The position numbers were made by a program, and so were the translations under genes. From Eledone cirrhosa (Eukaryota), in contig OZ024741.1 of assembly GCA_964016885.1 (NCBI GenBank), positions 179,924,001 through 179,988,000 of the forward strand: DNA of 64,000 nucleotides. The letters are read 5' to 3'. Shown piece by piece: positions 9,605-63,312 of the stretch (its first letter is position 1; each line of letters starts with the position of its first letter). Below the pieces are notes generated by a model that saw nothing but the letters and a program-made list of their open reading frames with translations, was not told where the DNA came from and ran no database searches.

Positions 9605-11614
9605 AATATAGACATAGAATATTCGAAAATATTCTGTATGTTTATAATAAACATTTTGAAGACCTAATCGCTATAGAATAGAATACGTCACGTATTACAA
9701 TTAGATTCTCGATAAAAGCAAGGGAAGTAATCTACGCGTTTCATTCTTGTTAGAAATCTTCAGGACTACATATCCAGTGCTTTTATCGAGAATGACACAG
9801 CTAGAGACTTATAGAATACTTAGCTGTGTACAGGAACTGGTTTGAAAGAGCGGTTGCCGGTCCGGCAGAAATTAGAAATTGGAATAAATGCTCTGAAATA
9901 GCGATATATATGTGAATATAGACATAGAATATTCGAAAATATTCTGTATGTTTATAATAAACATTTTGAAGACCTAATCGCTATAGAATAGAATACGTCA
10001 CGTATTACAATTAGATTCTCGATAAAAGCAAGGGAAGTAATCTACGCGTTTCATTCTTGTTAGAAATCTTCAGGACTACATATCCAGTGCTTTTATCGAG
10101 AATGACACAGCTAGAGACTTATAGAATACTTAGCTGTGTACAGGAACTGGTTTGAAAGAGCGGTTGCCGGTCCGGCAGAAATTAGAAATTGGAATAAATG
10201 CTCTGAAATAGCGATATATATGTGAATATAGACATAGAATATTCGAAAATATTCTGTATGTTTATAATAAACATTTTGAAGACCTAATCGCTATAGAATA
10301 GAATACGTCACGTATTACAATTAGATTCTCGATAAAAGCAAGGGAAGTAATCTACGCGTTTCATTCTTGTTAGAAATCTTCAGGACTACATATCCAGTGC
10401 TTTTATCGAAAATGACACAGCTAGAGACTTAAGTATTCTATAAGTCTCTAGCTGTGTCATTCTCGATAAAAGCACTGGATATGTAGTCCTGAAGATTTCT
10501 AACAAGAATGAAACGCGTAGATTACTTCCCTTGCTTTTATCGAGAATCTAATTGTAATACGTGACGTATTCTATTCTATAGCGATTAGGTCTTCAAAATG
10601 TTTATTATAAACATACAGAATATTTTCGAATATTCTATGTCTATATTCACATATATATCGCTATTTCAGAGCATTTATTCCAATTTCTAATTTCTGCCGG
10701 ACCGGCAACCGCTCTTTCAAACCAGTTCCTGTACACAGCTAAGTATTCTATAAGTCTCTAGCTGTGTCATTCTCGATAAAAGCACTGGATATGTAGTCCT
10801 GAAGATTTCTAACAAGAATGAAACGCGTAGATTACTTCCCTTGCTTTTATCGAGAATCTAATTGTAATACGTGACGTATTCTATTCTATAGCGATTAGGT
10901 CTTCAAAATGTTTATTATAAACATACAGAATATTTTCGAATATTCTATGTCTATATTCACATATATATCGCTATTTCAGAGCATTTATTCCAATTTCTAA
11001 TTTCTGCCGGACCGGCAACCGCTCTTTCAAACCAGTTCCTGTACACAGCTAAGTATTCTATAAGTCTCTAGCTGTGTCATTCTCGATAAAAGCACTGGAT
11101 ATGTAGTCCTGAAGATTTCTAACAAGAATGAAACGCGTAGATTACTTCCCTTGCTTTTATCGAGAATCTAATTGTAATACGTGACGTATTCTATTCTATA
11201 GCGATTAGGTCTTCAAAATGTTTATTATAAACATACAGAATATTTTCGAATATTCTATGTCTATATTCACATATATATCGCTATTTCAGAGCATTTATTC
11301 CAATTTCTAATTTCTGCCGGACCGGCAACCGCTCTTTCAAACCAGTTCCTGTACACAGCTAAGTATTCTATAAGTCTCTAGCTGTGTCATTCTCGATAAA
11401 AGCACTGGATATGTAGTCCTGAAGATTTCTAACAAGAATGAAACGCGTAGATTACTTCCCTTGCTTTTATCGAGAATCTAATTGTAATACGTGACGTATT
11501 CTATTCTATAGCGATTAGGTCTTCAAAATGTTTATTATAAACATACAGAATATTTTCGAATATTCTATGTCTATATTCACATATATATCGCTATTTCAGA
11601 GCATTTATTCCAAT
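9605..11614. mobile_element. head-to-head tandem array of a 310-nt hammerhead-containing monomer (retrozyme/Penelope pLTR-like)
   Basis: Period 310 (9607, 9917, 10227). Orientation flips at 10430/10431, then about 3.8 inverted copies follow. Copies are essentially identical and the array is flanked by (TA)n. Confidence 0.93.
10483..10525 (+). ncRNA. minimal type I hammerhead ribozyme (copies at 10793, 11103, 11413 on +; 9727-9769, 10037-10079, 10347-10389 on -)
   Basis: gtagtc-CTGAAGA-t-ttct-aaca-agaa-t-GAAA-cgc-GTA-gattac. Helix I gtagtc/gattac, helix II ttct/agaa, palindromic ACGCGT helix III, enclosed by a perfect 16-bp stem (10459-10474/10532-10547). Confidence 0.85.
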
Positions 11615-11912
11615 ATATATAAATATATATATATATATACATATATATATATATATATACAGTATATATACGTGTGTGTGTGAGTGTGTGTAAAATCTAT
11701 CTATCTACCTATCTATCTATGTATATATATATATATATATATATATATATATACATATATATTATATATATACATATATATATATATTTGTGTGTGTGTG
11801 TGTGTGTATACACACATACTCACACACACCCAGACATGCACACACACACACACACACACACACACACACATATATATGTAATATATATGTAATATATATA
11901 TATATATATATA
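11615..11912. repeat. TA/GT/CA microsatellite cluster
   Basis: Directly visible. Confidence 0.95.
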
Positions 11913-13349
11913 CCTAACTATTTCGCTACTTTCTACTCTCACCCCTCTTTCTTCCTCTCCCTTTCTCTCTCTCCGTTCCTCCCTCGCCTGACCCTCTAGT
12001 AGTTCTTTTCTCACTTACAACTGCTGGGATCAGACGTGTGTCTTTTTTCTCTCGACCACTTTTTTCTCTCATCGTGTGGTTTTGGATTTTCTTACCTTAA
12101 GTTGCTCGCACGTTGCTTCGTTTGTTGTCTTTTTCACTGTTTTCTCTTTTCTTCTCTTTTGCTTTCCTTCCCTCCCTCCTCCGTTTTCCCAATAACTTAT
12201 CCAGTTATTGACGCCCCGGACGGTAGATATCTTGTCTTTAAAGCGTAGAAATATCCGCGACCCCAGTAGACAACTGATGAGGAACCCCCCCCCCCGTTCT
12301 TGCTTTCTTCTTATTCCCACTCCATTTTAAGATACCTTAAATAACAACTACACAGCCATTTCTATTCTCCATATATATATATATATATATATATATATAT
12401 ATATATATATATATATATTATATATTGGAACCGAAGTTGTGATAAAAGTTATTTTGCATATGGATATTTTAAAAAGAATAATCAATTCTCTCTCAGATTA
12501 TTTGTGTGTACAAGTCAATGTCTAAAACACATTCTAGAATATATTTACATCTTCTATTTCTTCTCAGTTACTCACTTACATGTGCCATTTTCCTGCGTTT
12601 CCCCCTTCTATCGGTATGTTTATTTCTTTTTTTTTCCTTTTTCCTTTTTCTTTCTTTCTTTCTTTCTTTCTTTCTTTCTTTCTTTCTTTCTTTCTCTCTC
12701 TTCGCTATCGCTTCTTTCCCTCATGGCTTTTTGATATTTAAAAGGCTACGCTACGGATAGATGTATTGTTTATAATGCGCCGAAAGATCCGTGATCCGTT
12801 GTAGACAACTGACGAATGGAAACTGTCCATCTATTGTTTGTGTCGCCTTACCTTCTAAAGCTATATATATATATATATATATATATATATATATATATAT
12901 ATCCAGGGGGTGTAACGGGGAGTTACTGTAGCTTCACACGGGTGAGCACTCGATGTTTAGGTTCACGTCAGTATGGAGGTGTTGAGCTAGACAGAGTATA
13001 ATATGATAATACAAGGACGTCCTTGTATTATCATTTATCATATATATATATATATAATGTATATATATATATATATATATATATATATATATATATGTGT
13101 GTGTGTGTGTGTGTGAGTGAGTGAGTATTTGGTTATATTTCTTTTTTCGCGTCATTTAAACATGCCTGAGGCGTTGTCAATAAAAAAAAAAACGCATGAG
13201 AAATACTAAAGTTATAATCACTACCGACGTTTCTGTAAAGGACAATAATAAGAGACAGCACAACAGCTTAAATGTCTTAGAGACGATCCTTAGAAAAACT
13301 GCGCAGACATTGTCTGCACTAACCTGTCTGAAGTTAAAATGGTAAAGAT

Positions 13350-61619: not shown

Positions 61620-61940
61620 GAAGGCGAATGGTTTAGTAGTTAGAACATTGAGCTTTCAATCGAGAGGTTGTGAGTTCGATTCTCGGATCGGGTGATACGT
61701 TGTGTCCTTGAGCAAGACACTTTATTTCTCGTTGCTCCAGTTTACTCAACTGTAGAAATGAGTTGTGATGTCACTAGTGTCAAGCCGTATTGGTCAGTGC
61801 CTTTCCATTGGACAATATCGGTGGCGTGGAGAGGGGAGACTGGTCTTCCACAAAACAAACCTTGCTCAGGATTGTGCCTCGGAGGGAAACTTTCTAGGTG
61901 CAAAACCATGGTCATTCGTGACCGAGTGGGGCCATAAGAC
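61620..61940 (+). mobile_element. tRNA-derived SINE (family B)
   Basis: A box tggtttagtagttag, B box gagttcgattc, followed by tgtgtccttgagcaagacacttta. Confidence 0.8.
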
Positions 61941-62786
61941 CTGACGGACACCAGGACCAAGCGTCGATTATATCTTCCCTCTCTCCCCCTTTTCACTTAT
62001 CCTTCCTCCCCTTTCACGTTTGCTGCGATACTAATTGGGCACATTTTGACTCTGTCTCTCTCTCTCTATATATATATATATATATAAATATATATATATC
62101 CTTCTCTCTCTCTCTCTCTCTCTCTCTCTCTATATATATATATATATATATATATATATCTCACACTCTTTCTCTCTCTCGTTTGTTTGTCTGTTTTATT
62201 TTGTTTTATTTTGTTTTATTGTCATCACACACGCATCATACCTGCAGAATTGTTTACCCGAAACTGCTCACCCCAGATACAGAGACCTCACTTTCTCGTG
62301 CGAAACTACACGACCAGGGGATAGCTGACGAGGTATAACTTGTGTAACTTTAATCTCCACACCTATTGTAACTTTGGTCTCCACTTACTACTTTGAAGCT
62401 AAACTCCCCCACTTGCAGATTGCGCATCAACATGAAATATTTTTCTCCACAAAGTTCGATCACAAGCAGCAGAGTTTAAATACCTTTCTTTTCATTCTCA
62501 ATTTCTTAACACTCGTACATCTATTCTTAATTATCTATTCTTTCACCCACCCAACCTCATAACTTTCTGTTTCTCCGTAGTGGTCATTGGCCACTATTTT
62601 CCGTAATTAGGCTTATTTTTACCCGAAATCTATGCTGTTATTATTAACGGCATTTGCCTGTTTCACAGCTTTTTCTTGCGTTTGAGTTTCCCATTTTTCT
62701 ATGAACTTCATATTCCCTCAACGCTTCATTTCGAGAATTCGATACACTCAACACATACACACACACACACACACATATATATATAT

Positions 62787-63312
62787 TAGTATTGGTGCTC
62801 TGAAATAGCGATGTATACATGAATGTATATATAGTATATTTGGCAATATACTGTATGTCTAATTAAAACATTTTGAAGACCACTCGCTATGAGTTTTAAA
62901 TAGTGACTATGTCATTTACTTATTCTCGGCTCTACTTAAAGCTCATAGCGAATGGTCTTCAAATGTTTTTAATTAAACATACAGTATATTGCCAAATATA
63001 CTATACATACATTCATGTATACATAGCTATTTCAGAGCACCAATAGCAATAACAGATTTTTGCTGGACCGGCAACCGGTCTATTTAATCAGTTTTAAAAT
63101 ATCGCTGAAATTTTATAAGAATCCAGCATCTATAACTCTCAGCAGAAGCAAGGGAGTGAGTGGTCTTGATAAACGCTAACTAGCGAGAAACAGGACTGTG
63201 GATCACTCTTCTTTGCTTTTGCCGAGACATAGTCACTACTTTGAAACTCAGCGAATGGTCTTCAAAATATTTTTAATAAAACATACAATATATTGCCAAA
63301 TATACTATACAT
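62787..63312. mobile_element. fold-back plus partial tandem of a ~303-nt HHR monomer (310-nt superfamily)
   Basis: 62787-62900 is inverted at 62935-63045; agcgaatggtcttc recurs at 62947 and 63250; flanked by (TA)n. Confidence 0.8.
63159..63207 (+). ncRNA. hammerhead motif, U3-A8 variant, cleavage triplet GUG (likely inactive)
   Basis: agtggtc-TTGATAA-acgcta-ac-tagcga-GAAA-caggact-GTG-gatcact. Outer stem tctcagcagaagcaagg / ctttgcttttgccgaga. Confidence 0.65.

Follow-up and report, generated by a model that had tools for sequence, protein, structure and literature searches.

Animal retrozymes of the non-LTR kind (LTR, long terminal repeat) and Penelope-like elements (PLEs) are the described systems closest to the hammerhead-bearing repeats that we analyzed in a 64,000-nucleotide (nt) stretch of Eledone cirrhosa DNA (assembly GCA_964016885.1, contig OZ024741.1, positions 179,924,001 to 179,988,000), hereafter the window. 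Animal retrozymes are tandem units of a few hundred bases without an open reading frame (ORF), each with one type I hammerhead ribozyme; as in the units reported here (where it is 33 to 42%), G+C content is low, the units are well self-paired as circles, and the genome is rich in PLEs. Their dependence on PLEs was proposed in 2020 and argued further in 2026, from common ribozymes, co-occurrence, and homology to the pseudo-LTR (pLTR) of PLEs (PMC7229834; 10.64898/2026.07.22.740005). Circular RNA and cleavage have been shown for published retrozymes and are predicted for the units here, one of which differs in its length of 2.7 kb. We consider it likely that the hammerhead motifs of the window mark insertions of PLEs, mostly of the Hydra clade, and of ORF-less hammerhead repeats copied by the same enzymes, with a shared RNA hairpin positioning the enzyme.

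The Hydra clade (Craig et al. 2021, PMC8557442) shares several features with the coding elements found here. These are a short single frame with RW[KR] and DKT motifs, a CxCx5C linker, and, at the C terminus, a GIY-YIG endonuclease without internal CCHH; a hammerhead in the terminal repeat; (TA)n targets; and the known PLE insertion signature, an inverted 5'-truncated copy with a tail at one end. Among the Hydra families described there is one from Octopus bimaculoides, which has a hammerhead and targets (TA)n. However, Hydra is a small clade there and a large radiation here, with at least five families that are 35 to 60% identical, and its tails are 62 to 98 nt here instead of 30 to 40. The Anolis carolinensis Poseidon element PAc (Frangieh et al. 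2024, PMC11167929) resembles the model proposed below: in vitro, its protein, a predicted dimer, cuts and extends both strands of AT-rich DNA and starts at two internal sites on the RNA, between which lies the tail. Unlike the elements here, PAc belongs to a different PLE clade, starts in an AC-rich stem loop inside its frame and not 5' of a bulged hairpin, and uses its start sites without strand preference; nonautonomous templates were outside that study. Nonautonomous Chlamys elements such as MRC1 (PMC8557442) are from green algae; hammerheads are mostly missing from their clade, which favors (CA)n or (C)n.

We scanned the window with a type I hammerhead descriptor (core CUGANGA or its U3-A8 form, GAAA, helices I to III, and a UH cut site). 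This gave 16 complete hammerheads, against a mean of 0.02 and a maximum of 1 in 50 local dinucleotide shuffles, while an earlier, looser scan in three tiers gave 12 + 4 + 1 = 17 motifs against 0.02 to 0.08 in 60 shuffles. The 16 comprise seven in a 310-nt array, two in a 591-nt unit (U3-A8 core), the pairs 22096/22110 and 26736/27217, and those at 39929, 36466, and 17022. About 15 further motifs are damaged or clipped: 17035 and 22330–22420 are without the 5' strand of helix I, and 23825 and 48390 without the 5' half of the core; 24125 has G8>A, 18860 has GAAA>AAAA, and 63165 has a G at the cut site; helix I of 43227 is only 3 bp and helix III of 16583 has decayed; the core at 18448 has A6>U in the window, although other copies keep CUGAUGA; and at 25318 the core is intact but helix II is imperfect. 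Additional clipped copies lie at 15760/15860 and 36853. At E ≤ 1, Rfam matched the window 139 times, chiefly with microRNA look-alikes on simple repeats, and reported none of its hammerhead families. The original prediction, made by a model from the letters alone, had listed about 20 intact or degenerate hammerheads and proposed a comparison with shuffled controls; its motifs are real and far above shuffles both here and in the genome sample below, the named sites outside the 16 being mutated or clipped.

Helix III, described in that prediction as usually a different palindrome, is perfectly palindromic in the 310, 591, 519, 25318, 18448, 24125, and 22330 motifs and nearly so in 17022, 27217, and 39929; in 22110 and 48390 it is an ordinary hairpin. 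Palindromic helix III is common here and is a known dimer-folding feature of animal and PLE hammerheads (PMC4209133; PMC6765202). Two other claims need correction. The families are not all unrelated outside the core, as had been thought, since the 310 and 22110 motifs share a helix II that is, on direct inspection, nearly identical letter for letter, and the 27217, 39929, and 24125 hammerheads align with one another. Finally, it is the 3' end of the element that abuts (TA)n, about 15 to 310 nt beyond the cut site, and not the ribozyme itself. We also observed a U3-A8 core instead of C3-G8 in three unrelated families (17352, 17943, and 63166 in the window; loci L201 and L341), and both CUGAGAA and UUGAGAA among copies of the 48390 family.

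How widespread are these motifs? Our genome sample comprised 60 stretches of 10 kb, evenly spaced over the larger contigs and amounting to 599,800 nt of a 3.0-Gb assembly. It contains 29 hammerheads in 18 stretches, or about 48 per Mb, against 0 to 2 in 10 shuffles. A (TA)5 run lies within 200 nt downstream of 27 of the 29, compared with 17% of control positions. This supports both the large radiation and the insertion at TA microsatellites that had been predicted. Extrapolation gives a genome load of about 140,000 hammerheads, with a Poisson range of 97,000 to 208,000 that understates the true one because motifs cluster; the figure is a floor because the descriptor misses most 48390-family copies. 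For the axolotl, whose genome is far larger, a similar load of 120,000 has been reported. The window has a few times the average hammerhead density of the genome and is not unusually TA-rich (22.0 TA runs per 10 kb versus 23.0 in the sample).

Five of the ten motif groups that the prediction had named are 5'-truncated 3' ends of coding PLEs, four of them Hydra-clade: the pLTR group, 16973/17035, 23825/48390, and 22053/22105. The reverse transcriptase (RT) piece of Hydra family 1 has 32,698 first-look candidates in the genome, of which 150 were scored. Among 20 long-frame copies, RIRWR is present in 11, DKT in 19, the CxCx5C linker in 17, and a terminal CxH in 14; copies without RIRWR or DKT are truncated or broken in the RT N terminus. 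Two family 1 copies are complete at 743 amino acids, so intact Hydra frames are present in the genome, and by eye the endonuclease of one copy (L092) lacks CCHH. Pfam gave no match for the 743-residue frame, and the clade assignment is based on the published diagnostics and on by-eye likeness to the published alignment. A hammerhead in the pLTR and (TA)n insertion both hold for these elements. The 26736/27217 and 17022/17035 motifs adjoin Hydra frames in other genome copies, and the 22096/22110 family has the endonuclease in the opposite arm in 2 of 30 loci. In the 23825/48390 family, a Hydra frame stops about 1.5 kb upstream and resumes past the tail; this family was reached via its upstream part, as a genome search with 48375–48515 gave no match, probably because its words are too common. 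The fifth group, 18448, appears to be the end of a coding PLE outside these four, since one locus (L229) has upstream of the motif a GIY-YIG domain different from that of Hydra, with no RT seen. This element may be Neptune-like.

Four other groups are closed ORF-less units: 310/314/303, 591, 519, and the 2,683-nt unit with the 25318 motif. The original prediction is partly supported: the hammerhead-rich window is confirmed, and the interpretation as nonautonomous elements is half right, holding for these four groups, among which the 310, 591, and 519 families bear a PLE insertion footprint, and not for the five that are ends of coding PLEs. Not every family is only a truncated pLTR of an autonomous Penelope, the outcome named there as refuting the idea. 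From their sequence, the 310, 591, and 519 families fit published non-LTR retrozymes: they are closed tandem units of the class of about 150 to 1000 nt, have no coding frame, and carry a type I hammerhead in each unit. Their G+C contents are 0.34, 0.42, and 0.33, and circular-fold z scores of −3.9, −7.5, and −4.5, respectively, indicate that they are well self-paired as circles. Target-site duplications are unreadable because both flanks are (TA)n. The 25318 unit measures 2,683 nt between two B sites (defined below) in L357, with a longest frame of 124 codons; although it lies outside the described retrozyme range of 51 to 972 bp, it would work like a retrozyme. The tenth group, 22330–22460, was assigned to neither class, its listed copies being 5'-truncated just before the core.

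Several observations bear on these ORF-less units. Fragments at 25584–26047 (ribozyme absent), L231, L234, and L268 belong to another closed ORF-less hammerhead unit of about 390 nt. Compared with window 9610–11580, public runs X2, X3, and X6, with three different organism codes, each contain one 340-nt contig of the 310 unit (unit + 30) at a depth of 10 to 26 and with a closed-loop shape in the assembly graph; a tandem DNA array, circular RNA, or stray reads would each give such contigs. A search of sequencing runs listed no RNA run with these sequences, a result that bears neither way on expression. In run X1, most depth has U over A at free core position 7 (window 10493 and equivalent positions of 310 units), so a second major variant of the 310 family exists.

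For the insertion footprint, we surveyed 38 arrays of the 310 family, 37 from the listed matches (all returned on the minus strand) and that of the window. In 30 of them, a minus arm is joined to a plus arm that follows it, and both 3' ends point outward into flanking (TA)n. These outward ends fall at two fixed positions of the unit, A (about 209 to 218) and B (243 to 251), and in all 28 arrays with both ends visible there is one of each. The same rule was found in the 591 family (sites 314 and 479; 8/8 two-arm insertions) and in the 519 family (sites 459 and 524; 12/15), which brings the three ORF-less families to 48/51. Seven further families have one A and one B end in 95 of 113 two-arm pairs, the others being five AA, five BB, and eight with an end elsewhere, for an overall 143/164. 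The interval between A and B is the tail, which in the 310 group is 26 to 33 nt, nearer the classical 30 to 40 nt. Since this is the PLE signature on units without an ORF, it is direct genomic evidence for PLE enzymes copying them.

The two arms appear to be separate products. In the 310 family, there is no correlation between their lengths (rho 0.05, n = 27), and A is the longer of the two in 12 of 27 insertions. Of 60 arm 5' ends, about two would be expected within 5 nt of the ribozyme cut and none is there, and arms reach 19 units. Microhomology of at least 2 nt is present at 16 of 33 cleanly read junctions, against 17% expected. No variant is mirrored between arms in 28 two-arm arrays, and one is common to both with a one-unit offset. 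Together, these features favor two separately primed complementary DNAs (cDNAs), copied from a multimeric or circular RNA and joined at their ends. Linear ribozyme-cut monomers were rejected as the usual template because no arm 5' end is at the cut. We noted that variants recur in nonadjacent units of a single arm (L027, L035, L047, L048, and L051); in L027, for instance, 6 of 11 units share a 4-nt insertion. This points to multimeric templates, to jumps between templates, or to local duplication at a later time. Three single-arm 591 insertions (L128, L130, and L137) begin at unit position 432, in an internal TA-rich stretch, which suggests that a cDNA end can anneal directly to the target microsatellite.

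When the sequences 3' of the fixed ends were lined up, they revealed a hairpin, RCUC-stem-loop-UN-GAGY, with a two-base bulge starting with U. It starts 5 to 17 nt behind the A or B end, across tails of 62 to 165 nt, and is present at 11 of 15 named sites, compared with 3.7% of random positions in the same elements. Two B sites found after the motif had been defined also carry it. In Hydra families 1 and 2 and in the 591, 519, and 25318 units, both fixed ends have the hairpin behind them. When the basal pair is left unconstrained, it is Watson–Crick in 13 of 14 multicopy families (11 A-U and 2 G-C) and in 8 of 19 singletons, and at 18 of 22 sites the best pairing of the upper stem includes a two-base bulge. 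Across 17 aligned sites, 97% of cells pair and the covariation score is 0.396 versus 0.183, with 0 of 500 shuffles reaching the observed score. A structural descriptor has 46 matches in the 600-kb sample versus 15 after shuffling, and 30 of the 46 have (TA)5 40 to 190 nt downstream, against 11%. By eye, the hairpin is found in four of six Hydra consensi of Craig et al. (PMC8557442): Hydra-2_Amil and Hydra-2_Ajap, along with Hydra-1_Ajap (twice, upstream of the start codon) and, as a variant, Hydra-1_Crog.

We propose the following model. A Hydra RT–GIY-YIG protein, likely a dimer, would bind two hairpins on the RNA, nick both strands of a (TA)n tract, and prime one cDNA from each DNA end. One cDNA would start at A and the other at B, which would leave the A–B interval as a tail on one arm only. 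Each RT would then copy a random length of its template, multimeric or circular, reading over ribozyme cut sites, and the two cDNA ends would be joined head to head over 0 to 3 common bases. ORF-less RNAs bearing the hairpins would ride along on the Hydra protein, and the hammerheads would cut multimeric transcripts into putative unit RNAs able to circularize. End-to-end joining of two cDNAs resembles L1 twin priming. A stronger version, to which we give even odds, is that Hydra proteins recognize a bulged RNA hairpin that occurs twice per template and is conserved among corals, sea cucumbers, and this genome. Each hairpin would seat one RT subunit a few bases behind its start, which would give the head-to-head insertion with one tail and let any ribozyme circle acquiring two hairpins ride. 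For the 310/314/303 group, which has the footprint without the strict hairpin, the carrier is less certain; it may be another PLE clade, though the ribozyme resembles that of the Hydra family at 22110.

The alternative that survives best accepts the footprint and gives the hairpin another role, either read as DNA by the endonuclease or serving transcription or RNA stability, and not setting the RT start. There is precedent in the tail of Drosophila virilis Penelope, needed for DNA recognition by the endonuclease (cited in PMC11167929), and the 310 group keeps fixed ends without the strict hairpin. However, compensatory changes flanking the 2-nt bulge (18 of 22 sites) suggest that the fold forms in a single strand, and the hairpin keeps its distance of 5 to 17 nt behind both A and B while tails vary from 62 to 165 nt. 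We regard this alternative as unlikely. Less probable still is that a single cDNA folds back into the second arm, with later central deletions making the arms unequal. Long palindromes are prone to losing their centers, 2 of 27 insertions of the 310 family are nearly symmetric, and several short 17035-family insertions join at self-complementary sites. Yet either arm can be the longer, the lengths are uncorrelated, and no variant is common to mirror positions in 28 two-arm arrays, although most variants may postdate insertion; besides, folding back alone leaves the second hairpin, behind the second end, unexplained.

A third explanation, that the ORF-less units are PLE leftovers that unequal crossing over expanded in situ into satellites, with a footprint inherited from the original PLE insertion, is largely refuted and in our view very improbable. 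Satellite growth is one of the routes proposed by Li, Clavereau and Pollet in 2026 (10.64898/2026.07.22.740005), local duplication could give the variants shared by nonadjacent units, and five of the ten groups are PLE ends. Against this, near-identical 310, 591, and 519 arrays are dispersed over many contigs with their own junctions and flanks and the same two end positions, and no Hydra-like frame contiguous with them was found in the genome copies inspected. Although fold-back chimeras occur in long-read data, we give almost no credence to inverted arms as read or assembly chimeras, whose ends would not fall at two set and distinct points of the unit within (TA)n. In run X1, possibly the same sample, contigs show 14 arm-orientation switches at varied positions among 15 listed joints, so the two-arm structure is not peculiar to this assembly.

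Several points weigh against the model in which PLE enzymes copy these RNAs from two hairpin-marked starts. Single-arm insertions are common: 7 of 38 in the 310 family (and 1 unclear), 11 of 19 in the 591 family, and 7 of 23 in the 519 family (1 unclear). The microhomology figure excludes 20 of 53 junctions, where mismatches or surplus bases close to the joint prevented a clean reading. The autonomous Penelope partners that the original prediction had expected to share element ends were found for five groups and traced for none of 310, 591, and 519, in a survey that did not include Penelope/Poseidon and Naiad; indeed, none of the ORF-less units, whatever the family, was linked to a particular parent PLE. 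The two strands had similar start sites in work on the anole PLE, where ribozyme mutants left insertion unaffected (PMC11167929). As for the hairpin, the motif was first defined on some of its own test sites, and the 17 aligned sequences were picked by it. Sites 310A and 310B do not pass the hairpin test, and only a looser form of it is passed at 15860A and window 27217A. By eye, among the six published consensi, it is absent from Hydra-1_Obim and weak in Hydra-1_Amil. An orientation control was nonsignificant (10 into versus 6 out of TA), and the sequence-only form of the motif is not overrepresented (26 versus 5 to 28 in shuffles).

The element classes themselves, and (TA)n targeting by Hydra PLEs (PMC8557442), are known. 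Two-arm insertions, fixed A/B ends, and a start-site hairpin are not described in the accessible text of the retrozyme papers, nor does the main text of PMC8557442 mention a hairpin or stem loop; the accessible part of a 2026 octopus repeat annotation (PMC13282606) lacks the word ribozyme. Our literature search, which did not extend to Repbase and most subscription papers, found no report of the hairpin, of the A + B rule in retrozymes, or of cephalopod retrozymes. Until now, arguments about which enzyme moves animal retrozymes have drawn on co-occurrence and homology; the ORF-less units here bear a PLE-specific footprint, and three such families also carry the start-site hairpin of Hydra PLEs. 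For the origin of inverted, one-tailed PLE insertions, the near-strict rule of one A and one B, with paired hairpins, offers a concrete model testable with purified protein. If true, the roughly 140,000 hammerheads would form a host-and-passenger system with a defined, transferable cis-signal, and a short signal fixing internal priming of a telomerase-related RT would be relevant to builders of RNA-templated insertion tools.

Table 1. Hammerhead elements and related insertions in the window
Feature	Positions	Strand	Details
310-nt ORF-less retrozyme array	9594–11614		7 complete hammerheads; minus arm 9594–10431 ends at site A, plus arm 10430–11614 ends at site B
Tail fragment of a family absent from the original prediction	12903–13040	−	Bulged hairpin 12948–12997; boundaries by eye
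Two-arm insertion, further hammerhead family	15568–15937		5' core lost at junction; boundaries by eye
Decayed relative of 519-nt unit	16385–16781	+	Hammerhead 16588; boundaries by eye
Two-arm 3' end, Hydra-clade PLE	16941–17181		Hammerheads 17022 (minus), 17035 (plus); hairpin 17122–17142
591-nt ORF-less retrozyme, 1.5 units	17196–18097	+	Single arm ending at site A; hammerheads 17352, 17943; hairpins after A and B
Two-arm end fragment, 314-nt relative of 310 family	18138–18382		Without ribozyme; boundaries by eye
3' end of PLE with CxxC-bearing GIY-YIG upstream in L229	18403–18566	+	Core mutated in window copy
314-nt relative of 310 unit	18597–19026	+	Degenerate hammerhead 18864
Two-arm 3' end, further Hydra family	21966–22165		Complete hammerheads 22096 (minus), 22110 (plus); hairpin 22010–22028
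Two-arm insertion, 22330–22460 family	22276–22579		Hairpin 22515–22534
Two-arm 3' end, Hydra family 2	23736–23902		5' core missing; hairpin 23784–23807
Two-arm pLTR fragment, Hydra family 1 type	23917–24222		Hammerhead 24125 (G8>A); hairpin 23982–24001
3' half of 2,683-nt closed ORF-less unit	24225–25569	+	Hammerhead 25321; hairpin 25435–25494
Two-arm pLTR, Hydra family about 60% identical to family 1	26640–27417		Hammerheads 26736 (minus), 27217 (plus)
519-nt ORF-less retrozyme, two arms	36108–37078		Hammerhead 36466 (minus); hairpins after A and B
Hydra-clade PLE family 1	39743–43321		Hammerheads 39929, 43227; hairpin 39806–39825; minus arm ends at site B, with 5'-truncated frameshifted RT–GIY-YIG frame 41514–42864; plus arm 42886–43321 ends at site A
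Two-arm 3' end, Hydra family 2	48318–48515		5' core missing; hairpin 48444–48467
303-nt relative of 310 unit, two arms	62790–63310		Degenerate hammerhead 63166

The rest of the window is a nest of mobile DNA, with pieces of LINEs (long interspersed nuclear elements) and Helitrons, long (TA)n tracts, and many small palindromes. LINE-type pieces with RT domains lie at 2166–3960 (minus), 6694–9256 (plus; 6694–8640 is an open frame of 648 codons), 21126–21848, and 50330–51187. Two broken Helitron Rep-helicase regions were found at 30939–35255 (plus), where Pfam recognizes Helitron_like_N at 31946–32851, and at 51685–55086 (minus). A 33-nt minisatellite of about 129 copies occupies 55941–60177, and copies of a repeat of about 200 nt that resembles a short interspersed nuclear element lie at 22580–23000 and at 49345–49540, two being in tandem and each lying between short TA runs. 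Finally, repeat ends flanked by TA and without a recognizable ribozyme, at 16118–16400, 38156–38470, 48560–48610, and 60820–61050, are probably further families of the same system.

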